This document shows, in pieces, positions 11,667 to 61,743 of a DNA stretch of 64,000 bases. The notes under the pieces are model-generated. The model saw nothing but the letters and a program-made list of their open reading frames with translations, did no database searches and had not been told where the DNA came from. Origin of the DNA: Candidatus Uhrbacteria bacterium RIFCSPHIGHO2_02_FULL_46_47 (lineage in GTDB: Bacteria; Patescibacteriota; Patescibacteriia; GWA2-47-26). A program made the translations under genes and the position numbers. Every line of letters starts with the position of its first letter. The first letter of the stretch is position 1. The DNA is taken from NCBI GenBank assembly GCA_001790815.1, contig MGDU01000010.1, positions 2,621 to 66,620 on the forward strand. Reading direction: 5' to 3'.

Positions 11667-11718
11667 CACGCAAAGGGTATGGCAAAAACCATGCCTTTTT
11701 GGTATGATAAGGGAATGT

Positions 11719-26971: not shown

Positions 26972-26980
26972 CGATAGATT

Positions 26981-27628: not shown

Positions 27629-27638
27629 ACTTTTTGTT
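27607..27638. promoter_or_regulatory. palindromic site (TCACGATCGTGA core) downstream of paralog 1, about 90 bp upstream of cysS
   Basis: aacaaaaaagtcacgatcgtgaactttttgtt. Confidence 0.55.
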
Positions 27639-27705
27639 ATGCATTAAATTGCACGATAATTTCCATCTACGGGTTTTGTGATAGGTTTTATGAAATTTAT
27701 GAGTG

Positions 27706-31652: not shown

Positions 31653-31732
31653 TGCCAATATACGAATTTCATGCCAATCTACAAATTGCAAATTCGTATT
31701 TGTAGATTTGAATAAGATTTGTAGATTTGCAT
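31652..31732. repeat. family F intergenic element (ATGCCAATCTACGAATTTCATGCCAATCTACAAAT...ATTTGTAGATTTGAATAAGATTTGTAGATTTGCAT)
   Basis: Contains four TTTGTAGATT/AATCTACAAA half-sites in inverted arrangement. Begins at the stop of the upstream gene and ends 8 nt before the next ATG; copies at 40973 and 48320. Confidence 0.75.
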
Positions 31733-31739
31733 TACATTT

Positions 31740-34956: not shown

Positions 34957-34998
34957 CCGTGATTGTCAACTATTCACGATCGTGATAAACTGACAAGC
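34957..34998. promoter_or_regulatory. nested palindromic operator-like site (TGATTGTCA..TCACGATCGTGA..TGACAAGCA) immediately upstream of wHTH/Cas2-like paralog 2
   Basis: Ends 1 nt before the ATG at 35000. Confidence 0.55.
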
Positions 34999-34999
34999 A

Positions 35000-35620: not shown

Positions 35621-35642
35621 TTTGTGCGAAAATCTCCAAAAA

Positions 35643-35687
35643 TGTGATTGTCAAATACTCACGATCGTGATAAACTGACAATCAGTG
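35643..35687. promoter_or_regulatory. nested palindrome TGATTGTCA-N21-TGACAATCA with central TCACGATCGTGA (direct repeat of the 34957 site)
   Basis: tgattgtcaaatactcacgatcgtgataaactgacaatca. Confidence 0.55.
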
Positions 35688-39900: not shown

Positions 39901-39927
39901 ATGTTATACTAAATGGGGAATCATATG

Positions 39928-39960
39928 AATGTAAAATGTAAAATGAAAAATGTAAAATTA
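39928..39960 (+). promoter_or_regulatory. family G element (three TGTAAAAT boxes) at the start of the 39943 gene
   Basis: gaaTGTAAAATGTAAAATgaaaaaTGTAAAATta. Confidence 0.45.
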
Positions 39961-40971: not shown

Positions 40972-40972
40972 A

Positions 40973-41053
40973 ATGCCAATCTACGAATTTCATGCAAATC
41001 TACAAATCGCGAATTTGTATTTGTAGATTTGAATAAGATTTGTAAATTTGCAT
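40973..41053. repeat. family F intergenic element, copy 2 (immediately upstream of murJ)
   Basis: atgccaatctacgaatttcatgcaaatctacaaatcgcgaatttgtatttgtagatttgaataagatttgtaaatttgcat. Confidence 0.75.
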
Positions 41054-41057
41054 TGTC

Positions 41058-48315: not shown

Positions 48316-48319
48316 TATG

Positions 48320-48408
48320 ATGCCAATATACGAATTTCATGCCAATCTACAAATAACAAATAATTCATTCGCAATTCGTAGATTAGCATAAGATTTGTAG
48401 ATTTGCAT
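48320..48408. repeat. family F intergenic element, copy 3 (immediately upstream of rnhA)
   Basis: atgccaatatacgaatttcatgccaatctacaaataacaaataattcattcgcaattcgtagattagcataagatttgtagatttgcat. Confidence 0.75.
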
Positions 48409-48416
48409 CATATTTT

Positions 48417-48863
48417 ATGCACTACATAACTTACACTGATGGTGGGGCGCGGGGGAATCCGGGGCCGGCCGGGATTGGGGTTGTGATTTATTCATTAAAA
48501 CATGAAAACATTAAAGCATTAAAGCATGCGAAGGAAGATTTGGAATTAGTGGAGAAGTTTGGAAAGTATATTGGCAAAACTACTAATAATCAAGCAGAAT
48601 ACAACGCGCTTTTAGCGGCACTCAAGCGCGTGCATGAGCTTGGCGCAACTGAGGTGCATTGTATGCTTGACAGTGAGCTGGTGGTAAAACAGCTAAATCG
48701 TGAATATAAAGTGCGGGATCCGGATATCGCGCTGATTTTTACCAAAGTTTGGAATGAGATAATCAATTTTAAAAAAGTTACTTTTACGCATATTCCGCGA
48801 GAGAAAAATAAAGAAGCAGATCAGATGGTAAACGAAGCGATTGATCGTGCACAACATGGTTAG
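48417..48863 (+). CDS. rnhA: ribonuclease HI
   Basis: YTDGGARGNPGPAGIGVVI (DxxGG..NPG), NNQAEYNALLAAL (E), LDSELVVKQL (D), HIPREKNKEADQMVNEA (H..D). Confidence 0.9.
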   Translation: MHYITYTDGGARGNPGPAGIGVVIYSLKHENIKALKHAKEDLELVEKFGKYIGKTTNNQAEYNALLAALKRVHELGATEVHCMLDSELVVKQLNREYKVRDPDIALIFTKVWNEIINFKKVTFTHIPREKNKEADQMVNEAIDRAQHG

Positions 48864-48866
48864 ACA

Positions 48867-48875
48867 TGCTATAAT
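48867..48875 (+). promoter_or_regulatory. extended -10 promoter (TGcTATAAT) 6 nt upstream of the ATG at 48882 (near-leaderless)
   Basis: TGCTATAATacaggcATG. Confidence 0.5.
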
Positions 48876-48881
48876 ACAGGC

Positions 48882-51182
48882 ATGAAGCGGTTTCTCAAAA
48901 CCATGCAAAAGGGAAGCCAATTTTCCGTTATATACGGCGCCTTTGCGCTGTTGTTTTTAATTTTAGGCAGCTCATGGCTTGTACAAATAGATCTTCACGG
49001 CCTCGCGCAGGCGCAAAGCACACCACCAAATTATGCGGGATTTTTGTGGAGTGACACAATCGGCTGGATCAGCATGAATTGCAGCAATGATTGGGATAAT
49101 AATACGGCAACGCCACCAGAGGAGCGTTGCAGTGGTGAGGGCGGCGCGTATGGCGTGACGGTTGAGGTAAATCCTGTAACGCTTATTGGTACAATTAGCG
49201 GTGCGGCATGGTCACCAAATATTGGGCTTGTATGTTTTGGAGAAACCTGTGGGGCATGTTCCGGAGTAAGCTGTGACGGCAGACCTGAAGGCAGTCCGGT
49301 TGAGGCTCGATTTGACATGAATAATTTGCAGTGCGCGCCTTCGTCCGCTTCGTGCACGCGGCAAGTTGCGTATGTGCAAGGATATGCCCGCGTAGAAACG
49401 CAAGCCAATGAAAGCGGAGCAAATCTTGGCGGCTGGATTAAACTAAGCGGCACAGCGCCGGGCAATACGCCGATTCAAGTTGGCGCATGGCAAAATGAGT
49501 CCGGCACAACAAGTTTATCCGGTTCTGGTTGGCAGCAAAATAGCGATAGAGGCGGAATTGGCTGGGTTTATTTTGATGAAGGCCCGCCGGGAAATGCGAA
49601 TTGCGTGACAAATTGCGGAGGCGATAATGATGTGATCGTTACATTGCCGCCGGATCAAGAAACTGGTTGCGGCGATGGCCCGATTGCCTGCTGTAGTAAT
49701 TTGGTAGACGATGACCGTGACCGAAGCTATACAACTACTGATGAAAAAGATTTGGCTGGCGCGCTTGACGCAACCACAACCGGGGTTGATTGCCAAGATT
49801 ATGACTGCGCCGGCATGCCCAATTGTCCTTCAAGGGAGAACCAAAATCCGGATGGAACTCCCGCTCCAGCGCAATGTTTTGATGGGGTTGATGTTGATAA
49901 TGATCTTGACGCATGGGTGCGCGGCGGTGCGCCTGCCCAAGGCGCCGGAGTTGATTGCAGTGATACTGATTGCATCGGTGCAGAAAATCCTACAGATTCA
50001 ACAGAGCGTTGTGTAACAGTGGAGGCCTCAAATGAATTTAATTATTGTACTGATGGAATTGATAATGACAGAAATAATGATGCAGACTGCTTGGATTCTG
50101 CGTGCGGTTCATTTGTGGCGTGTGTTCAAAGCAATATTATAGGTGATGGCCCAGCAGACGGGGCAGAAGATGACCATCCTAATTGTGAGGGCGTGTGCAA
50201 ATCATCTGATCCTGCAGATATAGGACAGCCAAACTATTGTGCAGATAATGATAATGATAAAGTGTGTGACTTTGCGGACAATTGCGGAAAACTAGGTACA
50301 ACGCTTGTTGCAAATGAGAATCAAACTGATGTGAATGCTAATGGTGTTGGTGATGCCTGTGATGCATTCCTTGAAACGCGGGAAGGATCAATTTATGGCG
50401 GCGGATTCCGGGCGCCAGCTCGTCCGCGCGGATCAAATGCGACATTTTGTCTTCTTTCATCAGGTGCGATAGAAAATTTCAGATCAGAAACTGAAAGATG
50501 TGAATTGACGCTTGGTTTGCGCGCGCGCGAGTTTTTGCTGCTGCAGTACGGCGATGCATTGGCATTATGGAGTCAAGCTTTGCGCGCCCGTATTGATTAT
50601 ACGAAGTTGCGCCAGACTGCGGTTCAGCCGCTTCCTGCGAACCTTTCCGATTTGGGCTTAGCGGCAAATGCTGGCAAGGTATTTTATCATCAAGGTGATC
50701 TTGTTGTTGATCAAGAAATACTTTGGCAAAATGGAGTGCAAAATGGAGCACGAACAATTCTTGTTGATGGAAATATTACTTTTCGCGCGCCCTCACATTA
50801 TGATCCGACTCCGCTTTTGCCCGGTGCGCCTCTTCGTCAACTTGCCTCAGTTGCCTGGATTGCTGTTGGAGATGCTAGCGGGACAAAAGGCAATATTATC
50901 ATTGATCCAGCGGTTGGCGGTCATCCATCAGAAGATATGGTTGGCGCGTTTATCGCGTCAAATAGGATATCAACAGGACAGAGTAGTGAAGCACTGACGA
51001 TAAAGGGACTTGCAGTAGCCAGGCGGTTTAATTTTGAACGCACCTATGTAAGTCCGCCAGCCTTGCCTGCGCGCGGAGCAGAGCTTATTATCTATGACGG
51101 CCGAACAATCTTAAATCCGCCGCCTGGGCTTGCTGATCTTGTAAAAGCCCTACCAGTCTCCAAAGTAGTAGCACCACAGTAG
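48882..51182 (+). CDS. large secreted Cys/Asp-rich protein with thrombospondin type 3-like Ca-binding repeats (possible pilus-associated adhesin)
   Basis: Signal-anchor FSVIYGAFALLFLILGSSWLV; many Cys; Asp-rich loops (DNDNDKVCDFADNCG, NENQTDVNANGVGDACD, DVDNDLD); 766 aa; sits directly upstream of pilMNO. Confidence 0.5.
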   Translation: MKRFLKTMQKGSQFSVIYGAFALLFLILGSSWLVQIDLHGLAQAQSTPPNYAGFLWSDTIGWISMNCSNDWDNNTATPPEERCSGEGGAYGVTVEVNPVTLIGTISGAAWSPNIGLVCFGETCGACSGVSCDGRPEGSPVEARFDMNNLQCAPSSASCTRQVAYVQGYARVETQANESGANLGGWIKLSGTAPGNTPIQVGAWQNESGTTSLSGSGWQQNSDRGGIGWVYFDEGPPGNANCVTNCGGDNDVIVTLPPDQETGCGDGPIACCSNLVDDDRDRSYTTTDEKDLAGALDATTTGVDCQDYDCAGMPNCPSRENQNPDGTPAPAQCFDGVDVDNDLDAWVRGGAPAQGAGVDCSDTDCIGAENPTDSTERCVTVEASNEFNYCTDGIDNDRNNDADCLDSACGSFVACVQSNIIGDGPADGAEDDHPNCEGVCKSSDPADIGQPNYCADNDNDKVCDFADNCGKLGTTLVANENQTDVNANGVGDACDAFLETREGSIYGGGFRAPARPRGSNATFCLLSSGAIENFRSETERCELTLGLRAREFLLLQYGDALALWSQALRARIDYTKLRQTAVQPLPANLSDLGLAANAGKVFYHQGDLVVDQEILWQNGVQNGARTILVDGNITFRAPSHYDPTPLLPGAPLRQLASVAWIAVGDASGTKGNIIIDPAVGGHPSEDMVGAFIASNRISTGQSSEALTIKGLAVARRFNFERTYVSPPALPARGAELIIYDGRTILNPPPGLADLVKALPVSKVVAPQ

Positions 51183-51189
51183 TGAGATA

Positions 51190-51198
51190 TGGTATAAT
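51190..51198 (+). promoter_or_regulatory. extended -10 promoter (TGgTATAAT) for the pilM operon
   Basis: 18 nt upstream of the ATG at 51217. Confidence 0.5.
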
Positions 51199-51216
51199 AC
51201 TGCGAACAAGCAAAGT

Positions 51217-52290
51217 ATGAGCATATTTAAACGAAAACAAAAAGGGCATATCGGAATTGATTTTGGCGCAGGAGGAATTAAGATAATACAGCTTCAACCT
51301 GGCGATGGCCGGGGAAATCTTTTTACTTATGGATTTTCCGAGCGAACGCCTGAAGAGATGGGAGTAGATTATATTGAAAATCCAGAGGCAACCGCCGCAC
51401 TTTTAAAAACGATTTGTTCAAAAGCGCGTACGACTACTACTTCCGCGGTAGCCGCGCTTCCTATTCCAACTGTATTTTCCGCGGTTCTCTCTATTGCGCC
51501 AGTGCCAAAAAAAGAGCTTGCCAAAGCTGTTGAGTGGGAAGCGAAAAAATTGATACCTTTGCCGCTTGAGGAAGTTACGCTTGATTTTAAAGAGCTTAGA
51601 TTTCCAGATGAAGAAACCACGGCTAAAAAGACATTTGGAGAAAAGCAGATCTCAGTGCTTTTAACCGCGGCGCCAAAGAGCGTAATTGATAAATATGTGG
51701 CGATCGCAAAGGCCGCAGGACTTACTCTTACTTCACTTGAGACAGAAGCATTTGCACTTATTCGTGCGATGGTAGGTGTTGATCCAGCTCCGGTGATTAT
51801 TGTGGATATGGGAGCGGTGCGTTCCAATATTTTATTTGTGGATCGCGGAATACCTATGCTTATTCGTTCAGTAGAAATCGGAGGAAAAAAATGCACGGAG
51901 GCAATCGCAAGCGCACTTTCAATTGATATGAACCGCGCTGAGGCGATGAAGCGCGATTTGGGAATTGCTCCGCTTCCCGGAAGCGCTCCCGGACAGATGC
52001 CGACACTTTTAAAAGATGTGCTTACTCCGCTTTTGAATGAAATGAAGTACAGTTTTAACGTATATAGAACCCGCAGTGTCATCGCGCGTCCGCCGGAGAA
52101 AATCATTCTTTCTGGCGGAGGCGCGGGATTGCCCGGACTGAGCGAACTTATAACCTCGGAATTTAATATTAAGAGTTTTTTGGGGAATCCATGGGAGAGA
52201 GTGAATTTTCAGGATGATTTAATACCACTTTTGTACACATTTGGAAGCAGATTTGCAGTAGCAATCGGTCTAGCGTTGCGAAACGCATAA
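51217..52290 (+). CDS. pilM: type IV pilus assembly protein PilM (actin-like ATPase fold)
   Basis: IGIDFGAGGIKIIQL N-terminal phosphate-1 motif, about 355 aa; followed by the pilN/pilO pattern. Confidence 0.8.
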   Translation: MSIFKRKQKGHIGIDFGAGGIKIIQLQPGDGRGNLFTYGFSERTPEEMGVDYIENPEATAALLKTICSKARTTTTSAVAALPIPTVFSAVLSIAPVPKKELAKAVEWEAKKLIPLPLEEVTLDFKELRFPDEETTAKKTFGEKQISVLLTAAPKSVIDKYVAIAKAAGLTLTSLETEAFALIRAMVGVDPAPVIIVDMGAVRSNILFVDRGIPMLIRSVEIGGKKCTEAIASALSIDMNRAEAMKRDLGIAPLPGSAPGQMPTLLKDVLTPLLNEMKYSFNVYRTRSVIARPPEKIILSGGGAGLPGLSELITSEFNIKSFLGNPWERVNFQDDLIPLLYTFGSRFAVAIGLALRNA

Positions 52291-52317
52291 GTCTGTAAGA
52301 TCTGTCGCACTTATAAT

Positions 52318-52917
52318 ATGGCGGCGAAAAAAACAAAAAAAATTGAAGAGGTGCGAGTTAGCTTATTGCCGGAAGAAAAGGTAGTATCCAAAATTGAATC
52401 TCGGCGAACCGAGCGAATTCTTACTGCTATTCTCGCGGGGACGATATTAATAATTGTATCAGCAACTATATATTTGCGCGCCGGAGCCGCGCGCGCTATA
52501 TCACAAGCAAAGATACAGGAAAACGCGCTTGCCGCGCTTAATTTAGAGCTTGCCAAAGTTGAGACATCAGTGCGCACAGGAGGAAATGTTGGCCAGAGAA
52601 TTGAATTTGCAAAACGCAGTTTGCAAAACCATATTGCCGCTGAGCGCGTTGCGGATGTTTTAGAATCATCCACAGTGCCGGAAGTGTATTTTACGCAATT
52701 TGCCGCAAATACTGACGGCACGCTTATACTTTCCGCGCGAGGAAAGAATTTTCAAGCAGTAACGCGTCAGATACTGGCCTGGAATACGCATCCGCAAATT
52801 GCGCACTCGCGTGTTTCAGGCGTATCCGCAACTGTTGATAAACTCGGGAATGTGGAAGGCATTGATTTTAGCGTTACGCTCACGCTTAAGGAGGGCACAC
52901 TGATTTGGAAACCATAA
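52318..52917 (+). CDS. pilN: type IV pilus assembly protein PilN-like
   Basis: Short cytoplasmic N-terminus, single TM (ILTAILAGTILIIVSATIYL), periplasmic coiled coil; sits between pilM and pilO. Confidence 0.6.
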   Translation: MAAKKTKKIEEVRVSLLPEEKVVSKIESRRTERILTAILAGTILIIVSATIYLRAGAARAISQAKIQENALAALNLELAKVETSVRTGGNVGQRIEFAKRSLQNHIAAERVADVLESSTVPEVYFTQFAANTDGTLILSARGKNFQAVTRQILAWNTHPQIAHSRVSGVSATVDKLGNVEGIDFSVTLTLKEGTLIWKP

Positions 52918-52922
52918 TTTAT

Positions 52923-53612
52923 ATGCCCGCATTATTTACAAAGCAGTATAGAATATTAATTCTTGCCTCAGCAATTATCGCGGTTGGAATCGGCGGTTAT
53001 TTTTTCGGTGTGCGGTCAAACATCGCGGAATTTCGCAGTGCCAATGGCGAACTTGCTAAGTTCAAAGAAACGCGCGAAGTCACACAGGAGAAAATTGTAG
53101 AAGCGCGCGCAGTTGCGGCGCAGGCGACCGCCGGCACGCCAGCTGAAATTATTAAACTGCAATCTTTGTTTGTGCGTCAGAGCGAAATCGCGGAGCTGAT
53201 AAATATTATTGGTAACCGCGCGCAGACGGCTCGCTTTCTTCTGACCAATCTTGAAATTAGCACTGAGAAAGCAGAACGTAATGATGCTCGTGCGCTTCAA
53301 ACAGTGCGCGCGCAGGCGCAGCTTAAAGGCGGAGGTTATCGCGAACTTAAAGAGCTTTTGAAGCTTTTAACAGTCGCGGTTCCGCTCCTTGAGGTAAATT
53401 CGTTTACCTTTGATCCCAAAAGCACAACGGTCAGCATCAACTTAAGCGCACAGCGTATTTCGCAAGAGGCGTCTGCTTTAGTTCCTGTGGATACGGCATT
53501 CTTTAGCGACCCACGATTCAAAGCGCTTGGAGCGCCGGTGCTATTGCCTCAAAAAGAGCCAGTGGGACGAGAAAATCCGTTCGCGACATTTGAATCTCAA
53601 AAGAGCCAATAA
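52923..53612 (+). CDS. pilO: type IV pilus assembly protein PilO-like
   Basis: Single TM (ILILASAIIAVGIGGYFFGV) plus coiled coil; position in operon. ATG at 52923 chosen (ORF track TTG 52905). Confidence 0.55.
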   Translation: MPALFTKQYRILILASAIIAVGIGGYFFGVRSNIAEFRSANGELAKFKETREVTQEKIVEARAVAAQATAGTPAEIIKLQSLFVRQSEIAELINIIGNRAQTARFLLTNLEISTEKAERNDARALQTVRAQAQLKGGGYRELKELLKLLTVAVPLLEVNSFTFDPKSTTVSINLSAQRISQEASALVPVDTAFFSDPRFKALGAPVLLPQKEPVGRENPFATFESQKSQ

Positions 53613-53615
53613 GCT

Positions 53616-55364
53616 ATGGCTGTTCAAACTACTTTTAAAAATGAATTTCTTGATTTTTTAGTTAGAGAAAAGGTATTGAGCACAGAAAAAGTCGGTGAGT
53701 TGGAGTCACGTGCTAAACAAGAAGGCAGTACAGTTGAGCAAGTATTGACAAAGGATAGAATTATTTCTGAAGAGGAACTTACTTCAAAAAAGGCAAAATT
53801 TTTCGGTCTTCCCTATATTGATTTGACCGGAATTAAAATTGATCAGGCAACTTTGGGACTTATTCCAAAAGCAGTGGCTGAAAACTATCGTGTAATCGCG
53901 TTTGATCGCGATGCCGCGCAGCTTAATGTTGCGATTTACGATCCTCGCAATTTTCAAGCCATGGCTGCCCTTGATGTGCTGGCCGTGAAAAGTAATCTGC
54001 GCATCAAATATTATCTTACCTCGCTTAGTAGTTTTACCTCCGCAGTAAAGGTATACGCGGAGCTGACAAAAGAGGTCGCGGAGGTTATTGAGGTTGTGCG
54101 CAGAGAAAAGGTACGTGAGGCGCCAAAAGAAGAGGCGGCAGTGCCGGTTGAGGAGGTAATTAAGGGCGCTCCGGTTTCCCGCATCGTTTCAGTTATAATG
54201 CGGCATGCTTATGAAGGAAAGGCCTCCGATATTCATATAGAACCTTATCGCGGTGAGACGCGCGTGCGTTATCGCATTGATGGAGTGCTAAAAACTTCGC
54301 TGGCTCTTCCGGAAGAATTGCATTCCGCAATCGTCTCGCGCGTGAAAGTGCTGGCGAATTTAAAGCTGGATGAGACGCGCATTCCGCAAGACGGCCGCAT
54401 TACCGAGGAGATTGGCGGAAGGCCGATTGATTTTCGCGTTTCAACTTTGCCTCTTCAGGAAGGCAAAGAAAAAGTGGTGATGAGGATTTTGTCCACCGAA
54501 CGCACCCCGACTTTGGAAGAATTGGGATTTCATCCGGAACATATTAAAATCATAGACAGCAACATAAAAAAGCCGCACGGACTTTTGCTTATTTCCGGGC
54601 CAACCGGAGCCGGAAAATCAACCACCCTTTACGCGGTTTTAAGCATGCTTAATCGCGAGGGAATAAATATCATTACTTTGGAAGATCCGATTGAGTATTT
54701 TATTGCCGGCATTAATCAATCGCAAATTCGCCCGGAGGTTGGATATACTTTCGCAACCGGTCTGCGCTCAATTTTGCGGCAAGATCCGAATATAATTATG
54801 GTTGGCGAGATCCGCGACGCGGAAACCGGAGAACTTGCGGTGCATGCCGCGCTTACCGGACATTTGCTTTTGACCACTATTCACACCAACGACGCCCTGG
54901 GGGTAGTGCCGCGGCTGATTGATTTGAAGGCCGAGCCGTTTTTGCTCGCGGCAACATTTAACGTGGCAATCGCGCAGAGACTCGCGCGCAAAATTTGCCC
55001 GGATTGCAAAGGGCCGGCAGAAGTGCCTTTAAATGTGGTAGAACAGATGCGCAGTGAACTGCGCGCTACCCCGACGCGCTTTGTGCCATCTGGGCTTGAC
55101 GTAAATGGTCCCTTGACATTTTATCGTGGTCAAGGATGTCCAAAGTGTGGTACACTTGGATATAAGGGGCGCGTTGCGGTTGCCGAGATTTTGCAGGGAA
55201 CTGTGAATTTGAATCGATTGATTGCGATTGGATTTCCACAGGCCGAAGTTGTCGCGGAAACGCAAAGTCAAGGGATGATTACAATGAAGCAGGACGCGCT
55301 TCTAAAAGCCATTCAAGGATTTACCACTATTGAAGAAGTGATGCGTATTAGCAAGGAACAATAA
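53616..55364 (+). CDS. pilB: type IV pilus assembly ATPase PilB (GspE family)
   Basis: GspE_N domain, Walker A LLISGPTGAGKSTTLYAVL, ITLEDPIEY, Walker B IMVGEIRD, tetracysteine CPDCKG..CPKCG. Confidence 0.9.
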   Translation: MAVQTTFKNEFLDFLVREKVLSTEKVGELESRAKQEGSTVEQVLTKDRIISEEELTSKKAKFFGLPYIDLTGIKIDQATLGLIPKAVAENYRVIAFDRDAAQLNVAIYDPRNFQAMAALDVLAVKSNLRIKYYLTSLSSFTSAVKVYAELTKEVAEVIEVVRREKVREAPKEEAAVPVEEVIKGAPVSRIVSVIMRHAYEGKASDIHIEPYRGETRVRYRIDGVLKTSLALPEELHSAIVSRVKVLANLKLDETRIPQDGRITEEIGGRPIDFRVSTLPLQEGKEKVVMRILSTERTPTLEELGFHPEHIKIIDSNIKKPHGLLLISGPTGAGKSTTLYAVLSMLNREGINIITLEDPIEYFIAGINQSQIRPEVGYTFATGLRSILRQDPNIIMVGEIRDAETGELAVHAALTGHLLLTTIHTNDALGVVPRLIDLKAEPFLLAATFNVAIAQRLARKICPDCKGPAEVPLNVVEQMRSELRATPTRFVPSGLDVNGPLTFYRGQGCPKCGTLGYKGRVAVAEILQGTVNLNRLIAIGFPQAEVVAETQSQGMITMKQDALLKAIQGFTTIEEVMRISKEQ

Positions 55365-55438
55365 GAATGTAAAATGTAGAATGTAAAATGAAAAATGAAA
55401 ACGTAATTTTGCATTTTAAATTTTAAATTTTACATTTA
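55365..55438. promoter_or_regulatory. family G element (TGTAAAAT boxes in both orientations) between pilB and the receiver gene
   Basis: agaaTGTAAAATgtagaaTGTAAAATgaaaaatgaaaacgtaattttgcattttaaATTTTACAtt; contains a decayed MKNENV mini-ORF. Confidence 0.45.
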
Positions 55439-55443
55439 TCCAT

Positions 55444-55836
55444 ATGGCTCAAGGAACAAAAATGAAAATACTTATTGTTGAAGATGATACATTTTTGGCC
55501 GGAATTTACGCTAATAAATTTGAAAAAGAAGGTTTTGAGGTGGCGCTTGCCACTGACGGCGAAATGGCGCTTAAACTGGCGAAAAAGGAAGCGCCGCATA
55601 TAATACTGCTGGATATTCTTTTGCCCAAACTGGATGGTTTTGAAGTCCTGGAAAAATTAAAAAGTGACGCGGGAACAAAAGCTATTCCGGTAATTTTGCT
55701 GACCAATCTTGGACAAAAAGAAGATGTTGATAAAGGGCTGAAACTTGGCGCGGCGGATTATCTTATCAAAGCGCATTTTATGCCTGCCGAAACCGTAGAG
55801 AAAGTAAAGAAAGTTTTGGCCGCATCCGGACGATAA
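55444..55836 (+). CDS. single-domain response regulator (CheY/PilH-like receiver) inside the pilus operon
   Basis: KILIVEDD..D(55)ILLP..T..K REC-domain motifs. Confidence 0.8.
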   Translation: MAQGTKMKILIVEDDTFLAGIYANKFEKEGFEVALATDGEMALKLAKKEAPHIILLDILLPKLDGFEVLEKLKSDAGTKAIPVILLTNLGQKEDVDKGLKLGAADYLIKAHFMPAETVEKVKKVLAASGR

Positions 55837-55846
55837 ATTTTCGCCT

Positions 55847-57043
55847 ATGGCAATATTTCGCTATAGGGCAAAAGACAAATCCGGCCGTATGGCCGTTGGC
55901 CGGGCTGAAGCGCCGAATTTGGCAAGTGCAGAGCAAGCGCTGGAGGATCGCGGCTTGAATATTGTTCTGCTTGAAGAAATCGCGCCGCGCTGGCGCATCC
56001 CCCTTGCCGGACGCGTAACCGCGCGCGATATTGTTATTTTTTCCCGCCAGTTATCCGTATTGACTTCAGCTAATGTTACCTTGGTTCAGGGTTTGCGCAC
56101 TTTGCAGGACCAAACTCCCAATCGCGAACTTGGCAAAATTTTGAAAGAAGTCGCGGATGATGTGGAAGCCGGCACGCGGCTAAGTATCGCGCTTGGCAAG
56201 CATCCGCGGGTTTTTAATCGTTTTTTTGTGAGTATGGTAAAGTCCGGCGAGACCGCTGGCCGGCTTGCTGAAGTATTGAATTTTTTGGCGGATCAAACCG
56301 AGAAAGAATATGATTTGGTTTCCAAGGTGCGCGGCGCCATGCTTTACCCCGCGTTTATCGTAACCGGCATGATTATCATCAGTGTCGTGCTTTTGATTTT
56401 TGTGATTCCGCGGTTGACTTCCGTGCTGTTGGAGTCCGGCGCCACGCTTCCGCTTACCACCCGCATGCTTATTGGCGCGTCGTCATTCATGCGCAATTTT
56501 TGGTGGCTTTTGATTATTTTGATAGTCGGCGCGATTGTATTGTTCCGTTTGGCGCTAAGGCAGTCCGATTTTCGTGAATCCTATGACAAGCTGAAATTGC
56601 GTATACCGATTTTCGGCTCGCTTTTACAAAAAATTTACCTTGCGCGCATGACTCGCAGTTTGCACATTTTGCTTTCCGGTGGCGTGGATGTGGTTGGGTC
56701 TTTGGAGGTGGTGGGGGAGGTGGTTGGCAATGAGTATTACGCGCGGATGATACGCGAAACTCAGCGCGAAGTTGCGGATGGAAATTCCATAAATACCATA
56801 ATTCAACAAAGCTCGCTTGTTCCGGCCATGGTTTCGCAAATGTTGGCAGTAGGCGAGGAAAGCGGTCAGATGACACAAATTCTTGATAAATTAACTTCAT
56901 TTTATACGCGTGAGGTGGATAATGGCGTAACTACGCTGGTGTCCATTATTGAGCCGCTTTTGATGGTGATAATCGGGCTTGGAGTTGGAATGATTGTGGC
57001 TTCTATAATTTTGCCCATGTACAAACTTGCCGGGTCATTTTGA
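55847..57043 (+). CDS. pilC: type IV pilus platform protein PilC (GspF family)
   Basis: Two GspF-type repeats and 3 TM segments (e.g. AFIVTGMIIISVVLLIFVIP); 398 aa. Confidence 0.85.
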   Translation: MAIFRYRAKDKSGRMAVGRAEAPNLASAEQALEDRGLNIVLLEEIAPRWRIPLAGRVTARDIVIFSRQLSVLTSANVTLVQGLRTLQDQTPNRELGKILKEVADDVEAGTRLSIALGKHPRVFNRFFVSMVKSGETAGRLAEVLNFLADQTEKEYDLVSKVRGAMLYPAFIVTGMIIISVVLLIFVIPRLTSVLLESGATLPLTTRMLIGASSFMRNFWWLLIILIVGAIVLFRLALRQSDFRESYDKLKLRIPIFGSLLQKIYLARMTRSLHILLSGGVDVVGSLEVVGEVVGNEYYARMIRETQREVADGNSINTIIQQSSLVPAMVSQMLAVGEESGQMTQILDKLTSFYTREVDNGVTTLVSIIEPLLMVIIGLGVGMIVASIILPMYKLAGSF

Positions 57044-57066
57044 TAGATGACAACACCGAGTCAATC

Positions 57067-57120
57067 GTAGTCGCGGATTTTGTAGTCGACGGCTTTAGCC
57101 GGCGCGCGCGAACTGACGAC
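57067..57120. repeat. degenerate family E REP-like element after pilC
   Basis: gtagtcgcggattttgtagtcgacGGCtttagCCggcgcgcgcgaactgacgac. Confidence 0.5.
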
Positions 57121-57140
57121 TTTGTGCAGTCACAAAAATA

Positions 57141-57149
57141 TGCTATACT
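57141..57149 (+). promoter_or_regulatory. extended -10 promoter (TGcTATACT) 6 nt upstream of the pilin ATG (near-leaderless)
   Basis: TGCTATACTatacctATG. Confidence 0.5.
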
Positions 57150-57155
57150 ATACCT

Positions 57156-57626
57156 ATGTGGATAAGTCGAAATAGAACCGGAAAAGGTTTTACGCTCATT
57201 GAGCTTCTTGTGGTGATTGCGATTATAGGCATATTGACCACTGTGGCCACATTGTCGCTGATTCAGGCACGGCGTCGGGCGCGAGATACCAAACGCGTTT
57301 CCGATATTCAGCAGGTGCGCAACGCGCTGCTCATTTACTCAAATCAGCGGGCAACTTATCCGGCAACTCCTGTTGGCGGCGTCATATTGGGAAGCGGGGA
57401 TGCAAAGTGCCTGGATGATTCTGTTGCAGGATTTAACGTGGTATGCGGCGCTGGCGGAGAACTTGTGATTATGCAAAGGGTTCCTGCTGATATTGTTGGC
57501 GGCGCGAGTTACACATACAGTAAAACCGGAGCGCAGAATTATGCCATCACGTTTACATTGGAAGGAAATGTTGAAAATTTAAGTGGAAATTGTACTGCGA
57601 CAGAAAGTGGAATTACTTGTCCATAA
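57156..57626 (+). CDS. type IV pilin (major pilin candidate 1)
   Basis: Prepilin leader ...GKG|FTLIELLVVIAIIGIL (class III signal, Glu5). Confidence 0.85.
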   Translation: MWISRNRTGKGFTLIELLVVIAIIGILTTVATLSLIQARRRARDTKRVSDIQQVRNALLIYSNQRATYPATPVGGVILGSGDAKCLDDSVAGFNVVCGAGGELVIMQRVPADIVGGASYTYSKTGAQNYAITFTLEGNVENLSGNCTATESGITCP

Positions 57627-57641
57627 AGGTCGAATCAAAGT

Positions 57642-57738
57642 GTAGCCGCCGGTCTTTAGCCGGCGCACTTGCTCAAAGTAGATTGTAGCCGCCGGTCTTT
57701 AGCCGGCGCACTCGCGCAGCTTAAAGCGCTGCGGCTAT
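57642..57738. repeat. family E REP-like cluster: two identical GTAGCCGCCGGTCTTTAGCCGGCGCAC units plus a third hairpin
   Basis: 57642-57668 and 57685-57711 are identical; 57714-57738 is GCGCAGCttaaagcGCTGCGgctat. Confidence 0.75.
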
Positions 57739-57760
57739 AATAATTAAAATATAATAAACT

Positions 57761-58243
57761 ATGAAACAATATAAAAAAGGATTCACCCTTATAGAATTGC
57801 TTGTCGTGATTGCAATTATCGGCATCTTGTCAACCTTGGCAGTTGTCTCACTCGGAAACGCGCGAGTGCGTGCAAGGGATTCAAAACGAACAGCGGATAT
57901 GCGTTCACTCCAAAGCGCATTGGAAATTTTCTACACAGATCGCGCGGCTTACCCAGTTCTAAATCCGGGGGCAAACATAGAGGATCAATATCTTTGCAAT
58001 ACCTCGGGGGTTACTGCATTCCAAGCTGGGGTATGTACAACCGCATCTGACCAGTTGATTCGCGTGCCACGCGATCCATCGTCAAATTCCGGTAATACGG
58101 ATTCCAATGTATACACGTATACTAGTATAAGTGGAAGCAATACTTATAAAGTTGCCTTTACGCTGGAGCAAGCAGTTGGTACATTACCATCAGGCGCAAA
58201 TTGTCTTACAACGGGAGGCCTTGCAGGTGGTGCTTGCCCATAA
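57761..58243 (+). CDS. type IV pilin (major pilin candidate 2)
   Basis: KKG|FTLIELLVVIAIIGILS prepilin leader. Confidence 0.85.
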   Translation: MKQYKKGFTLIELLVVIAIIGILSTLAVVSLGNARVRARDSKRTADMRSLQSALEIFYTDRAAYPVLNPGANIEDQYLCNTSGVTAFQAGVCTTASDQLIRVPRDPSSNSGNTDSNVYTYTSISGSNTYKVAFTLEQAVGTLPSGANCLTTGGLAGGACP

Positions 58244-58271
58244 AGTTGTATTGTATTACAAGGGCTCGCAA

Positions 58272-58306
58272 GGATTACCCTATATGGGTAGTCCTTTGTG
58301 TTTTAT
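58272..58306 (+). terminator. rho-independent terminator after pilin 2
   Basis: GGATTACCC-tata-TGGGTAGTCC followed by TTTGTGTTTTAT. Confidence 0.45.
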
Positions 58307-58322
58307 GGTATAATGGCATACT

Positions 58323-59117
58323 ATGATGGGCATTGTTTTTATAGCCGGTCTTGCAATTGGCAGCTTTTTAAATGCGTATATTTGGCGCTTGCATAGCGGT
58401 GGATCTGTGTGGCGGGGGAGGTCGTATTGTCCAAAATGCAAAAAAGGTCTTGCCTGGTACGAGCTTATTCCACTTGTATCATTCTTTGTACAACTTGGCC
58501 GATGTCGCGGTTGCAATCAAAAAATAGATTGGCAATATCCGTTGGTAGAGTTTGTCACTGGGATTTTGTTTATATTGGTTTTTGTGAATATAAAGCAAAT
58601 GGCGCTTGCGCCGCTTTGGCGCGAAGATCTTGCTATTGTAGTATCCTGGTACTTACTCGCAGTGCTCACGATACTGTTTGTATTTGATCTTCGTTATGGT
58701 CTTGTTCCGGATGAAGCGGTGTTGCCGGCTATTGTAATCGCGATGGCGTACAACATCATCTTGAGCTATGGTAAAAATCCAAACCATAACTACTTACTAC
58801 CTACTACTTACTACCTACTCGCAGTCGCAATTGGCGCGGGATTTTTCGCCTTGCAATACTGGTTTTCAAAAGGAAAGTGGCTAGGGGCAGGTGATATACG
58901 CATTGGCGCGCTTATGGGCGCGATGGTTGGTTGGCCGTATATTTTTGAAGCAATTATCATTTCTTACATAATCGGCGGATTTGTCGGTGTGTTTCTTTTA
59001 ATAAACGGCAGGAAGAAATTTGGACAAACATTGCCGCTTGGGACATTTCTTACTCTTGGTACCGCAATTGTATTTTTATATGGCGAACAATTATGGCGCG
59101 CGTATTGGAAAATATGA
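58323..59117 (+). CDS. pilD: prepilin peptidase PilD (A24 family)
   Basis: N-terminal tetracysteine CPKCKK..CRGCNQ and a membrane core with conserved Asp residues; 264 aa. Confidence 0.85.
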   Translation: MMGIVFIAGLAIGSFLNAYIWRLHSGGSVWRGRSYCPKCKKGLAWYELIPLVSFFVQLGRCRGCNQKIDWQYPLVEFVTGILFILVFVNIKQMALAPLWREDLAIVVSWYLLAVLTILFVFDLRYGLVPDEAVLPAIVIAMAYNIILSYGKNPNHNYLLPTTYYLLAVAIGAGFFALQYWFSKGKWLGAGDIRIGALMGAMVGWPYIFEAIIISYIIGGFVGVFLLINGRKKFGQTLPLGTFLTLGTAIVFLYGEQLWRAYWKI

Positions 59118-59800
59118 ATCACGAATCAGGAATTTGGAATCATGGATTGCGAAAAAATCATAATTCATTATTCATAATTCATAATTCGCGTAAATCCGCA
59201 GGATTTACGCTTTTGGAGCTTCTTGTTTCTATCAGCATTTTTGTTATAATTACGACCGCGGTTGTAATTAATTATCGCAGTGGGGAGCAAAGCGCGCAAT
59301 TGCGCCTTGGCGCGGAAAATCTGGCAAGCACACTGCGGCTTTTGCAAACAATGGCGCAAAGCGGTAAAACAGTGGAGTTGTGCGATACCCAGGACGCAGA
59401 TGGCACGCCAGATCAATACGCAAACCAAGTATGCACGGTAGGCAGTGGAGTAAACTGCGACAGCGCATGCACTCAGCGTGTTCCAACCGGCGGATATGGC
59501 ATGTCTATAGTAAATGGCGCAGTATTATTATTTGCGGATGGAAACAATAATCATGTTTTTGATACAGGTGAGGAATTGGCAAATGTGAAAACAGATTTTC
59601 CGCAAAACATTGTAATTGGCGTTATAACCGAAACCGAAGATGCACAATTGGCCATTGTGTTTTTGCCGCCAGATGCAGAAATTTTGGTAAATGGAGCGCA
59701 AGCCGCAAGTAATGTATACATCACAGCACAGCATGAAAAAAGCGGGGATAATCGCACGATTGTTGTACGTCCCGCAAGCGGTCGTATTGATGTGAAATAA
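59114..59800 (+). CDS. minor pilin/pseudopilin (prepilin-type N-terminus)
   Basis: SAG|FTLLELLVSISIFVIITTAV; ATGA overlap with the pilD stop. Confidence 0.7.
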   Translation: MNHESGIWNHGLRKNHNSLFIIHNSRKSAGFTLLELLVSISIFVIITTAVVINYRSGEQSAQLRLGAENLASTLRLLQTMAQSGKTVELCDTQDADGTPDQYANQVCTVGSGVNCDSACTQRVPTGGYGMSIVNGAVLLFADGNNNHVFDTGEELANVKTDFPQNIVIGVITETEDAQLAIVFLPPDAEILVNGAQAASNVYITAQHEKSGDNRTIVVRPASGRIDVK

Positions 59801-59806
59801 AATAGT

Positions 59807-60382
59807 ATGCTGAAACGTGGTTTTGGGCTACTGGAAACTATTATTGCGCTGGGAGTAATTATAACTGGGCTTGTTTCAGTTATTTCGCTTAGTATTGCAA
59901 ATCTAACAAATGAGCGCGACACGGCGATGCGCTACCAAGCAGTTAATCTTGCGCGCGAAGGAATTGAGCTTGTGCGCAATATTCGCGATAGCAACTGGCT
60001 TGCTGGTACGGATACCTGGCAAGGAATTCCGCCAGGAGGAGGGGATTTTACTATACAATTCAATCCAGAAACTCAAAAGTTTGCGTTTGCGCCTGCAGGC
60101 GGTGAAGAGTCTGTTGAAGGCGCGCGCGTTGCACAGTGCGGAGATGGAATCTATATCCAACCGAGCAGTTTTATTTGCGATAAAATTACCCCATTTTCAA
60201 GAACGCTGAATCTTACGTTCAAAAGCTGTGTAGGAGAATTTTCAGGCGATGAATTCGCCTCTGTATGCGAAGCGGCTGGGAATCCCACTCCCCCGGTTGC
60301 CCTTGAGATTTCGTCCACTGTTAGTTGGAATCAAGGAGCAAAAAATATCACGATTACTGATATCCTATATGACTGGCGATAA
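59807..60382 (+). CDS. minor pilin-like protein
   Basis: KRG|FGLLETIIALGVIITGLVSVISL prepilin-like N-terminus. Confidence 0.65.
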   Translation: MLKRGFGLLETIIALGVIITGLVSVISLSIANLTNERDTAMRYQAVNLAREGIELVRNIRDSNWLAGTDTWQGIPPGGGDFTIQFNPETQKFAFAPAGGEESVEGARVAQCGDGIYIQPSSFICDKITPFSRTLNLTFKSCVGEFSGDEFASVCEAAGNPTPPVALEISSTVSWNQGAKNITITDILYDWR

Positions 60383-60950
60383 AAACGGCTTTACACTGAT
60401 GGAGATGCTGGTTTCACTTGCGCTTTTTTCAGTGGTTGTTACGATTTCAACAGATCTTTTCTTTACCTTCCAGCGCGTTTCTCGCAAAACAGAGAGCTTT
60501 GAGCATTTAGTTTCAGATGCGAGATTGATTATTGAGCAAATTGCGCGCGAAGTGCGGGAAGGTACGATCCATTACAGTGCATATCCAACTCTGCCGTTGA
60601 ATACGCCGCAAACCACGCTTAAGATATTAGATAGTTCCGCAGTTCCGGTTGAATTTGCCTTTAACGCATCTTGTCCGGATAATAGCGAGTTCCCATGTCT
60701 TACGATTGCGCGTGGCGGTTCTCCGGAGCGGCTTTCCGGCGTGGATACGCGAGTTATCAACGCGCAATTCTTCATTTCCCCAACACTAGATCCATTTAAC
60801 TTTTCAGCAGATACCGGAAATTATTTAGCCGATAGCCAACCGCGCGTAACAGTCGCGCTATCGCTTGATAATGGCAAAGACGCCGGCGATCCAAATTATA
60901 TTCGTTATGATGTTCAAACCACAATATCAAGCCGCGTTTATCGGCGGTAA
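60369..60950 (+). CDS. minor pilin-like protein
   Basis: KNG|FTLMEMLVSLALFSVVVTIS; start at the ATG overlapping the upstream stop (ORF track 60249). Confidence 0.65.
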   Translation: MTGDKNGFTLMEMLVSLALFSVVVTISTDLFFTFQRVSRKTESFEHLVSDARLIIEQIAREVREGTIHYSAYPTLPLNTPQTTLKILDSSAVPVEFAFNASCPDNSEFPCLTIARGGSPERLSGVDTRVINAQFFISPTLDPFNFSADTGNYLADSQPRVTVALSLDNGKDAGDPNYIRYDVQTTISSRVYRR

Positions 60951-61743
60951 CCCTACCCAACCTCCCTCACCCGGCCTGCGGCCACCCTCTCCCTCAGGGA
61001 GAGGGGAGGGTGAGGGGAAAAAAGGAGAGAGGAGGGGTTACTCCTTGCTTTTGGCCGTGCTGATTACCAGCACTGTTCTTTCAGCCGCTTCTGCGCTAGC
61101 CACTATTATTATTTCGGAAATTCGGCAAACGCGGCAAACTGCCGGCGCAATCCAAGCTCGCGCAAGCGCAGAACAAAAAACCGAGCGCGTTTTGTATTTA
61201 TTGCGCAAGACAGAATTGCCACTTGATCAGATTGCCGGCGCAACCGGTGCGGCCGTTTCATCTTCGCAAGATCCACAATATTTTAGCATTCAGGAAAATG
61301 ATTTTGTGTCATTGCCCATTAGCGTAGACGGGGAAGTATCCGATATTGCGCCGCGCATTACTACCATTACTACATGGAAGCCGGCAGAGGCATGCGCAAG
61401 CGCAAGCGCAAGCTGGATTGAGGTAACACCGATTTCATGGAACGGTGCGGAATTTATTTCACAACGATACCCGTATTCTCACAGCGACTTTACATCCGAA
61501 GGTCAGTTGCGTATTGCATTTCCGGCTGGTGGAACGCCGGTTGAAATGCGCATCCGCGCTTTGTATTGCGACATTGATAATCTTGCCGTAGAAGATATTC
61601 CCGGACGCGTGCGCATCGTGGCTTCTGGGCAATCCGGAGACGTGAGCCAGTCCTTGCAGACGCTTATGGTTCGCCGTCCTCCAGCGTCAGGATTATTTGA
61701 TTTTGTCATTTTTTCAGAATCCGAAATCAAAAAAGGACTATGA
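60865..61743 (+). CDS. pilus-associated membrane-anchored protein (PilX/GspK-like position); start ambiguous
   Basis: Hydrophobic anchor GYSLLLAVLITSTVLSAASALATIIISE. The ORF N-terminus runs through a family C element (60951-61017); an alternative TTG start at 61045 has a GGAGAGGAGGGG RBS. Confidence 0.5.
   Translation: MIMAKTPAIQIIFVMMFKPQYQAAFIGGNPTQPPSPGLRPPSPSGRGEGEGKKGERRGYSLLLAVLITSTVLSAASALATIIISEIRQTRQTAGAIQARASAEQKTERVLYLLRKTELPLDQIAGATGAAVSSSQDPQYFSIQENDFVSLPISVDGEVSDIAPRITTITTWKPAEACASASASWIEVTPISWNGAEFISQRYPYSHSDFTSEGQLRIAFPAGGTPVEMRIRALYCDIDNLAVEDIPGRVRIVASGQSGDVSQSLQTLMVRRPPASGLFDFVIFSESEIKKGL
60951..61017. repeat. family C palindromic element at the junction of minor pilin genes
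   Basis: ccctacccaacctccctcacccggcctgcggccaccctctccctcagggagaggggagggtgagggg. Confidence 0.8.

Follow-up and report, generated by a model that had tools for sequence, protein, structure and literature searches.

A secretin-less type IV pilus locus in Candidatus Uhrbacteria with a conserved secreted protein upstream of pilM, a receiver gene beside pilB and palindromic insertions in prepilin leaders

Type IV pili offer the most promising explanation of how ultra-small bacteria that depend on a host locate it, stay attached and acquire DNA. Within the candidate phyla radiation (CPR), secretin-less pili with PilMNO, PilB, PilC and PilD are widespread and PilQ is absent (PMC6744442). In cultivated Saccharibacteria, such pili drive host binding and twitching (PMC12206443, PMC9894109). 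Solenoid domains are known from pilus tip proteins: that of ComZ from Thermus thermophilus (PDB 6qvi) is ice-binding-protein-like and was placed at the tip (PMC6561018), and those of cyanobacterial PilX have been proposed to replace PilY1 (bioRxiv 10.64898/2026.02.12.705559). Here we describe a pilus locus from Candidatus Uhrbacteria bacterium RIFCSPHIGHO2_02_FULL_46_47, an uncultured groundwater bacterium of the CPR. The locus lies in a 64,000-nucleotide (nt) stretch of contig MGDU01000010.1 (assembly GCA_001790815.1; positions 2,621 to 66,620), which was analyzed as a whole and is called the window below. Because secretin-less CPR pili have already been described, the basic finding is another member of a known system. 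We consider it likely that these genes form a functioning type IVa-like pilus operon in a cell that has no outer membrane, that the operon carries two lineage-wide accessories (a large secreted protein, here called X, and a receiver protein), and that the hairpins within it are mobile elements, not dedicated regulators.

The order of the genes is X-pilM-pilN-pilO-pilB-receiver-pilC-pilin 1-pilin 2-pilD-minor pilins 1 to 4 (Table 1), and both this order and the coordinates given in the initial annotation of the window were borne out. The arrangement RNase H-X-pilM-pilN-pilO-pilB-receiver-pilC-two pilins-pilD-four minor pilins-ligA is repeated in the Uhrbacteria-type contigs L007, L013, and L014, the first of which stops inside pilD. 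An identical PilB is encoded by several metagenome contigs and by GenBank contig MGEO01000008.1. Where they align with the window, near-identical contigs obtained from other samples (L001-L006) show 99.9-100% identity, and no polymorphism in the presence or absence of repeats was found between them and the window. A scan of the collection with PilC as the single query returned three distant loci. In a related Uhrbacteria genome (L012, GCA_016203545.1), pilB directly follows rpoB (1-2768), so X and pilMNO must be encoded elsewhere in that genome.

Table 1. Positions of the pilus genes, expression signals and palindromic elements in the window (aa, amino acids; MFE, minimum free energy; z, folding relative to shuffled sequence).
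Feature	Position	Strand	Basis or remark
Whole locus	48882-61743	+	14 genes in succession
Promoter-like site of X	48848-48875	+	TGCACA, 16 nt, TG-extended TATAAT ending 6 nt before ATG
X, secreted, 766 aa	48882-51182	+	Signal peptide, modular architecture
Extended -10 before pilM	51190-51198	+	TGgTATAAT, 18 nt before pilM; sequence reading
pilM, actin-like cytoplasmic component	51217-52290	+	PF11104, 3.5e-39, full length
pilN-like, 199 aa	52318-52917	+	N-terminal VSLLPEE, one transmembrane helix, position, size
pilO-like, 229-235 aa	52905-53612	+	Start TTG 52905 or ATG 52923; position conserved
pilB, assembly ATPase	53616-55364	+	T2SSE 4.3e-116, MshEN 3e-10, all motifs intact
Family C AT-rich palindrome filling pilB-receiver spacer	55365-55440		MFE -19.2 kcal/mol, z -5.5
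Stand-alone CheY-like receiver, 130 aa	55444-55836	+	PF00072 1.6e-24, receiver domain only
pilC, platform protein	55847-57043	+	T2SSF PF00482, two stretches, 3.1e-53
Family A, single degenerate copy, pilC-pilin 1 spacer	57082-57108		Sequence
Extended -10 before pilin 1	57141-57149	+	TGcTATACT, 6 nt before pilin 1; sequence reading
Pilin 1, GspG-like, KG↓FTLIE	57156-57626	+	N_methyl 5e-09, TIGR01710 partial, TIGR02532
Family A, half unit and full unit, pilin 1-pilin 2 spacer	57642-57665, 57685-57738		MFE -47.8 kcal/mol, z -2.5
Pilin 2, paralogue of pilin 1	57761-58243	+	N_methyl 8e-10
Intrinsic terminator after pilin 2	58270-58306	+	11-bp stem and T-run; top terminator of scan
Extended -10 before pilD	58306-58314	+	TGgTATAAT, 8 nt before pilD; conserved in L007, L012, L013, L014
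pilD, prepilin peptidase/N-methyltransferase	58323-59117	+	A24_N_bact PF06750 5.8e-30, Peptidase_A24 PF01478 4.5e-13
Minor pilin 1, GspH/FimU-like	59093-59800	+	N_methyl 2.6e-07, GspH 1.4e-3 (weak)
Minor pilin 2, PilV-like, MLKRG↓FGLLE	59807-60382	+	TIGR02523 6.8e-5, below cut-off
Minor pilin 3, PilW/ComGF-like, MTGDKNG↓FTLME	60369-60950	+	N_methyl 4.3e-07, TIGR02532
Minor pilin 4, PilX/GspK-like, G↓YSLLLAV, without Glu5	60910-61743	+	Alternative start TTG 61045
Family B GC-rich palindrome in minor pilin 4 leader	60951-61035		MFE -60.2 kcal/mol, z -3.3
Family B, lepA, two sites	44914-44990, 45755-45850		
Family B, recJ	47554-47641		
Family B, cysS	28861-28949		
Family B, murJ	41310-41356		
Family B, giant open reading frame	10340-10392		
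Family B look-alike, recJ	about 47120-47160		Shorter, weaker
Family B look-alike, ligA	about 62505-62545		Shorter, weaker

The core machine appears intact. PilB retains its Walker A (GPTGAGKS), Asp box (DPIE), Walker B (IIMVGEIRD) and His box (TGHLLLTTIHT) motifs and the tetracysteine CxxC...CxxC, and PilD keeps both Cys pairs (CPKC and CRGC) and both Asp motifs (DLRYGLVPD and GAGDIR). With these catalytic motifs present and the open reading frames (ORFs) intact, a check for decay proposed with the initial annotation showed that the locus is not decayed. Pilins 1 and 2 are 43% identical to each other, orthologues of pilin 1 are 60-65% identical, and both paralogues are retained in L007, L012, L013, and L014. 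Class III signals were identified by N_methyl or TIGR02532 in pilins 1 and 2 and minor pilins 1 and 3, and by sequence in minor pilin 2; in minor pilin 4 the signal is G↓Y without Glu5, as in GspK or PilX, and this protein has zero matches in Pfam or NCBIfam, even at E<=10. A longer ORF for minor pilin 3 (60249-60950) was rejected as an artefact, the conserved start being ATG 60369 (MTGD in relatives).

Among PilM, PilN, and PilO, only PilM is backed by a profile. The PilN-like and PilO-like proteins returned zero Pfam or NCBIfam matches, even at E<=10, and were assigned by position, size, transmembrane helix, and the VSLLPEE sequence of the PilN-like protein, which resembles the PilM-binding INLLP motif. 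The pilN-like gene keeps its position and size in all related loci, and the PilO-like protein is 35-42% identical in relatives (tblastn). The missing profile support for these two proteins counts against a working type IVa-like machine. Taken by its sequence, the locus is nonetheless a functional-looking secretin-less type IV pilus locus. In such a system, PilM, PilN, PilO, and PilC would form the membrane platform, PilB would power assembly, and PilD would cleave and methylate the two GspG-like pilins and the four minor pilins, of which the GspH-, PilV-, PilW-, and PilX/GspK-like proteins would together form a priming or tip complex.

Pfam detected no secretin domain in window ORFs of about 110 aa or more. 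Neither a second T2SSE ATPase (pilT) nor pilins beyond those of the locus were found in the 64-kb window by Pfam on the larger ORFs or by tblastn with the locus proteins, and the idea of a pilT concealed in the window was rejected. The absence of pilQ and pilT from the window had been proposed initially and was confirmed, and the monoderm envelope proposed with it agrees with a report that bacteria of the candidate phyla have an envelope of monoderm-like type (PMC6744442). The locus had also been called complete. This is true for assembly; the window holds no retraction ATPase.

The same genes might instead build a short pseudopilus that exports proteins or takes up DNA, as in type II secretion and competence systems. 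GspG is the best-scoring model for each of the two pilins, minor pilins 1 and 3 have weak matches to GspH/I/J or ComG models (all below cut-off), pilT is missing from the window, and DNA uptake is a role proposed for CPR pili (PMC6744442). However, PilM and PilN are separate proteins and not a GspL fusion, which is the type IVa arrangement, the two pilin genes look well expressed, with their own promoters and terminator, and cultivated CPR bacteria with homologous machinery have been shown to make long pili and to twitch (PMC12206443, PMC9894109). We regard a pseudopilus as quite improbable and prefer a type IVa-like pilus.

The first accessory, X, is encoded directly upstream of pilM. In all N-terminally complete homologues (16/16), an N-terminal hydrophobic segment is followed by A/V-x-A (-3/-1), a signal-peptidase I site; in the window protein this AxA site lies near residue 45. 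It is followed by a beta-rich N-domain (about 54-231), which in the family alignment carries W-S-x-x-x-G-W-I motifs, and by Cys/Asp-rich repeats (about 260-450), in which Cys and D-N-D positions are invariant. In total, 32 Cys and 64 Asp occur in the window protein. Next, the alignment shows a single DNC....NP.Q.D....G.GDACD unit, and the window protein has one TSP3-like repeat (about 453-493). A predicted C-terminal beta-solenoid follows, with an invariant tail, YDGR...NPPPGxxD, that is nearly invariant across the family as YDGR...NPPPG(L/F)xD. X has no match in Pfam or NCBIfam, even at E<=10, and 17 family members likewise have no Pfam match at E<=0.01. No PilY1 profile match and no sequence similarity to PilY1 were detected, and the model contains no pilin helix, the N-terminus being a Sec-type signal.

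A profile search of 1.84 billion representatives with the X family recovered 1,639 proteins at E<=1e-30, which fall into two classes. The first consists of proteins of about 390-1800 aa that have the C-domain at their own C-terminus and variable N-terminal parts. The second consists of giant proteins that match profile positions about 421-458 only, many times over, one of them with 33 Pfam TSP_3 repeats. As this part of the profile matches bona fide TSP_3 proteins, X probably holds one thrombospondin-type-3-like unit, although on X itself Pfam TSP_3 is below significance and the repeat copy in the window is degenerate (NENQTDVNANGVGDACD). Ca binding by X, as first proposed, is plausible from its motifs. 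No Pfam match was found, even at E<=10, but positions about 421-458 of the family profile do match TSP_3 repeat proteins.

X had been noted as an unusual feature of this genome, and it proved to be nothing of the kind. A metagenome scan with the family alignment yielded 80 loci, 72 of which extend at least 700 nt downstream, and pilM follows X on the same strand in 72/72, with a median gap of 103 nt. This linkage makes X a conserved part of the pilus system of the lineage. In addition, an 819-aa gene before pilM in Saccharimonadales aligns to the solenoid end (hhalign probability 84%, E 7e-6) and likely encodes a remote X homologue.

The C-domain of X is modelled as an ice-binding-protein-like triangular beta-solenoid, the fold of the tip pilin ComZ and of cyanobacterial PilX. 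The resemblance is one of fold only, since X has no Pfam match to the DUF3494 ice-binding family (E<=10). Exported by Sec and cleaved at the conserved AxA, X might attach to the tip complex of minor pilins and serve there as an adhesin or plug that is not itself a pilin, in the role of PilY1 or the ComZ/PilX solenoids; we would put this possibility a little short of an even chance. The cleavable signal, the pairing of a conserved C-domain with variable N-terminal modules, and the parallel with ComZ and PilX speak for it, and the tip adhesin suggested by the first reading of the DNA is a reasonable proposal given the solenoid. Several observations weigh against it. X is always encoded beside pilMNO and never beside the minor pilins, a neighbourhood that favours a basal-body or envelope role. 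The model is only moderately confident (predicted local distance difference test, pLDDT, 62; predicted template modelling score, pTM, 0.37). Since beta-solenoids are common among surface proteins, the match to ComZ may reflect fold class only.

X could also be an extracytoplasmic basal part, a guide or anchor spanning the cell wall or S-layer that works with PilMNO and functionally replaces PilP, PilQ, or TsaP. The invariable position upstream of pilM is like that in the pilMNOPQ operons of diderms, the C-domain is about as well conserved as PilN and PilO, beta-helix proteins, many of which are among the structural matches, often bind or cut polysaccharides, and the likely remote homologue in Saccharimonadales also precedes pilM. 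On the other hand, the conserved AxA cleavage site speaks against a membrane anchor, a variable N-terminus joined to a conserved C-domain in proteins of roughly 390-1800 aa resembles a modular adhesin, and a tip protein ranks first among the structural matches that are related to pili. A basal role seems to us rather doubtful, and a place at the tip is the reading that we carry forward.

The second accessory is the receiver. Its phosphorylation pocket is intact as read from the sequence (D14/D15, D57, T85, and K107), and at 78-85% identity in Uhrbacteria-type loci, compared with 67-76% for PilB and 61-75% for PilC, it is the best-conserved protein of the locus. The initial annotation had remarked on a CheY-like gene between pilB and pilC; the position is correct but not peculiar to this genome, as a receiver directly follows pilB in 32 of the 43 metagenome loci that extend far enough. 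The gene after the receiver is pilC in five loci and a second T2SSE ATPase in three others (L040, L052, and L067). Two distant CPR loci, L009 (Curtissbacteria) and L010 (Saccharimonadales), have no receiver; there, the gene that separates pilB from pilC encodes a second T2SSE ATPase. From position and conservation, we infer that phosphorylation of the receiver tunes PilB, and PilT where present. Against this stand the generic nature of the nearest solved relatives (PleD, PhoP, and CheY), the absence of specific similarity to PilG or PilH, and the absence of a histidine kinase gene from the window.

Promoter-like sequences are a recurrent feature of the locus. The promoter-like site of X scored highest in the promoter scan (10/12, with TG), and TGnTATAMT also lies 4-6 nt before the X ATG in L007 and L008. 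As this extended -10 is kept in diverged relatives, a near-leaderless promoter of its own, as first proposed for X, is likely. Similar -10 boxes precede pilM in L007, L008, and L013, and none does in L014; before pilin 1, TGCTATAMT is kept in L007, L012, and L013, and L014 has TGGTATACT. A stem-loop with a T-run follows pilin 2 in all five genomes compared. No ribosome-binding site was found before the starts of X, pilM, pilin 1, or pilD, and mRNA leaders seem generally to be short or missing in this genome, not only in the case of X. Transcription from the TG-extended -10 promoters would give the units X, pilMNOB-receiver-pilC, pilins, and pilD with the minor pilins. Elsewhere in the window, TATAAT-like boxes, often TG-extended, lie 2-20 nt before many starts on the + strand (for example 1026, 11154, 16909, 19056, 27726, and 39913) and most genes have no Shine-Dalgarno sequence, which suggests that leaderless or short-leader mRNAs are widespread in this organism.

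Several unrelated families of palindromes have copies spread throughout the window. Rfam recognized only a tRNA there, so the hairpins match no described RNA family. Family A (GTAGYCGC...TCTTTAG...GCG) is represented by 12 half-units, all of them intergenic (12/12). Hairpin arrays had been reported from the spacers on both sides of pilin 1. The pilin 1-pilin 2 spacer does hold 2.5 copies, and three of the half-units of family A lie there (57642-57738). In the pilC-pilin 1 spacer, there is a single copy, which is degenerate, and the predicted folding is not stronger than that of shuffled sequence (z -0.16). Two palindromes had not been listed, one in the leader of minor pilin 1 and the other in the pilB-receiver spacer; the latter belongs to family C, which has further copies at 13024, 15329, 20646, and 39922. 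The pilB-receiver spacers of relatives are 13-52 nt long and have no family C palindrome, family A has no match in related loci, and at the pilC-pilin 1 and pilin 1-pilin 2 sites relatives have other repeats or none. Since the families are genome-wide and are absent or replaced in relatives, the hairpins are best read as insertions of mobile palindromes.

It had been suggested that the hairpins set pilin stoichiometry. They would then be selected elements that stabilize mRNA or attenuate read-through and so determine the relative amounts of pilin 1, pilin 2, and the minor pilins, much as REP (repetitive extragenic palindromic) elements stabilize upstream mRNA segments in E. coli operons. The pilin 1-pilin 2 spacer does fold better than shuffled sequences, and the usual ribosome-binding site of pilin 2, which is AAAGGGGGTGAGACA in three related genomes, is replaced in the window and in L013 by hairpins and AT-rich promoter-like sequence. 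However, the same families occur all over the window, related genomes have no repeat or another one at these sites, the pilC-pilin 1 spacer is not unusually structured, and the terminator scan found no T-run after the hairpins. The conserved elements near the pilins are instead the promoter before pilin 1, the terminator after pilin 2, and the promoter before pilD. Control of stoichiometry by the hairpins thus finds no support in the comparison and is unlikely; any effect on pilin ratios would be incidental to the spread of mobile palindromes.

Palindromes have also entered the coding sequence, in the leaders of minor pilins. Minor pilin 4 was compared with L012, L013, and L014. In L012, the gene begins MMFKPQFPAAPTGDRS-G↓YALLLAV; the ATG start overlaps the 3' end of the preceding gene, whose stop is only 4 nt from the Gly codon. 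In the window this distance is 85 nt, a net gain of 81 nt or 27 in-frame codons with no stop over the insertion-free form. The sequence G-Y-[AS]-L-L-L is kept in four genomes through synonymous changes, which shows that this stretch is translated, and no in-frame ATG, GTG, or TTG lies between the previous stop and the Gly codon in the window. We infer a start at ATG 60907 or 60910 and a leader of 43-44 aa, the stretch containing PSPSGRGEGEGKK. Alternatively, translation could start at TTG 61045, three codons into the mature part, with AGGAGG 9 nt upstream. The gene callers differ accordingly, with Prodigal choosing TTG 61045 and NCBI choosing ATG 60910. Two points tell against a processed pilin with a long leader: the TTG start would give a leaderless, unprocessed minor pilin 4, and the translation of long leaders is deduced from frame conservation. 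The palindrome had been thought to change the start of the last gene. This is not clearly so: the overlapping ATG is conserved, and the 27 additional in-frame codons lie between it and G↓Y.

Long leaders recur in the family. Among 33 minor pilin 4 homologues with a recognizable G↓Y, leaders range from 6 to 52 residues (median 21), and 12 have leaders of at least 27 residues, with translated repeats of at least four families. In-frame repeats are found in the leaders of minor pilins 1, 3, and 4 (L012-L014), between a conserved start (e.g., MTGD) and G↓F/Y. The leader of minor pilin 1 in the window is 29-36 aa long and includes a translated AT-rich palindrome (59123-59187; z -4.1 for the segment 59080-59210). 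A perfect 10-bp inverted repeat (GCGTAAATCC GCA GGATTTACGC; 59188-59210) lies right after this palindrome, over the G↓F codons. In an operon with overlapping genes, the leader would be the only coding part in which additional residues do no harm, because PilD cuts it off. In this tightly packed operon, the palindromes would survive only in spacers and, in frame, in cleavable minor-pilin leaders, from which PilD would remove the extra peptide.

Alternatively, the locus could be decaying, with minor pilin 4 knocked out by the repeats. It is true that a palindrome (-60 kcal/mol) sits between the sole in-frame ATG and the mature N-terminus and that the gene callers disagree on the start. Yet no ORF is broken and no catalytic motif is lost, the insertion is exactly 27 codons without a stop, in-frame leader insertions recur in many genomes, and the mature part of minor pilin 4 is well conserved and is modelled by AlphaFold2 with a pLDDT of 82. 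We consider decay hardly credible, and tolerated insertion into a functional operon remains our reading.

Family B (CCCTCACCCC..CCCTCTCCC-loop-GGGAGAGGG..GGGGTGAGGG), the family found in the minor pilin 4 leader, is also present in frame inside essential genes (Table 1). The copies read without stops as P-S-P...G-E-G-type peptides, for example PSPQPSPxRGEGE, and Pfam places normal domains on both sides of the inserts. In L013, a family B copy (7258-7344) splits the PilD N-domain. Another hairpin, GGAAGCTSAGCTTCC, which is different from family A, flanks and is contained in an IS200/Y1-transposase-like gene at 158-904 (Y1_Tnp, PF01797, 5.9e-11). Its copies lie at 174, 356, 382, 909, 933, and 62245-62279, with 7 matches against 0.05 expected; the gene may be a REP-associated transposase, and no given palindrome family was linked to a transposase in the window. 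The copies at 62245-62279 form an in-frame hairpin pair in ligA, where Pfam reports the adenylation-domain match as two stretches.

Further palindromes occur at gene boundaries in the window. A family of the form ATGCCAATCTACAAAT ... ATTTGTAGATTTGCAT (31645-31739, 40967-41054, and 48314-48415) ends a few bases before the starts of unrelated genes (a TrwB-like ATPase, murJ, and RNase H) and could be a mobile promoter/operator module. Two PaaX/Cas2-like genes (26981-27628 and 35000-35620) are bracketed by TCACGATCGTGA-based palindromes (26756-27654 and 34960-35684), a pattern that suggests autoregulation through operator sites; related loci have a third gene of this kind after ligA. The window also encodes several large or surface-associated proteins. 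A 3207-aa ORF (1026-10649) with a signal peptide, no Pfam match, and direct repeats of period about 2.1 kb that are 66-89% identical is probably a giant surface protein. An 848-aa protein (31740-34286) has an ATPase domain of the TrwB/VirD4 coupling-protein type (3.7e-09); in a genome of otherwise minimal content, it may belong to a DNA-transfer or secretion system. Two predicted surface proteins (39913-40971 and 11659-13026) have Ca-binding-type modules, one with a TSP_3 repeat (1.1e-05) and the other with fn3, Big_6, and a weak dockerin match.

A more far-reaching proposal would join these observations: X as the non-pilin, PilY1-like host- or surface-recognition head of Parcubacteria-type pili, with an ice-binding-protein-like solenoid and exchangeable N-terminal adhesive modules, the receiver as a phospho-switch between extension and retraction, and prepilin leaders as safe sites for mobile palindromes, whose translated products PilD would then trim away. 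As a whole we offer it as speculation that may well be wrong. The linkage of X with pilM, the receiver beside pilB, and leaders as palindrome sinks were not described in the literature searched, the coverage of which is incomplete, and the same literature held nothing specific on in-frame palindromes in these bacteria or on Uhrbacteria pili. X and the receiver, as two conserved components, lend themselves to genetic work and cryo-tomography in those few relatives that can be cultivated. The leader insertions matter for annotation, given that gene callers disagree on start codons, and are a natural example of palindromic mobile DNA tolerated within coding sequence.

The closest described systems are the type IVa-like pili of other CPR bacteria (Nanosynbacter lyticus TM7x locus 1, PMC12206443; TM7i, PMC9894109; survey, PMC6744442). 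These and the Uhrbacteria locus have in common the co-location of PilM, PilN, PilO, PilB, PilC, and PilD with several pilins, the lack of PilQ, a PilX-like minor pilin (alpha1 helix plus beta-jelly-roll, with an atypical signal), and pilins that diverge outside the N-terminus. The Uhrbacteria locus differs in that a large secreted solenoid protein heads the operon and in that the slot between pilB and pilC is taken by a receiver, where L009 and L010 have the second ATPase. A CheY-like protein tied to pilus motor genes is shared with PilG/PilH of Pseudomonas and the PixG/PixE-type proteins of cyanobacteria, but here it lies between the motor genes and not in a Chp-type chemosensory operon, with no kinase nearby.

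X and the proteobacterial PilY1/PilC proteins are alike in being large Sec-exported non-pilins with a conserved C-domain, variable N-terminal modules, and Asp-rich Ca-binding-type motifs, and both systems have four core minor pilins. Unlike PilY1, X has a predicted triangular beta-solenoid in place of the C-terminal beta-propeller with its Ca-binding loop, has no vWA domain, and is encoded before pilM and not in the minor-pilin cluster. With ComZ and cyanobacterial PilX, X shares the predicted ice-binding-protein-like beta-solenoid. In those proteins the solenoid is inserted in a pilin fold, whereas X is a separate protein with an ordinary signal peptide, and in this locus the PilX-like minor pilin has a beta-sandwich in place of a solenoid. 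As for the palindromes, family A resembles REP elements in being multi-copy and strictly intergenic, but no cognate RAYT transposase flanked by family A was found, the Y1_Tnp gene having a different hairpin; family B resembles the Rickettsia palindromic elements in lying in frame inside genes (lepA, recJ, cysS, murJ, and minor pilin 4). The Uhrbacteria case differs from both in having several unrelated families in one small genome and in the repeated insertion into prepilin leaders.

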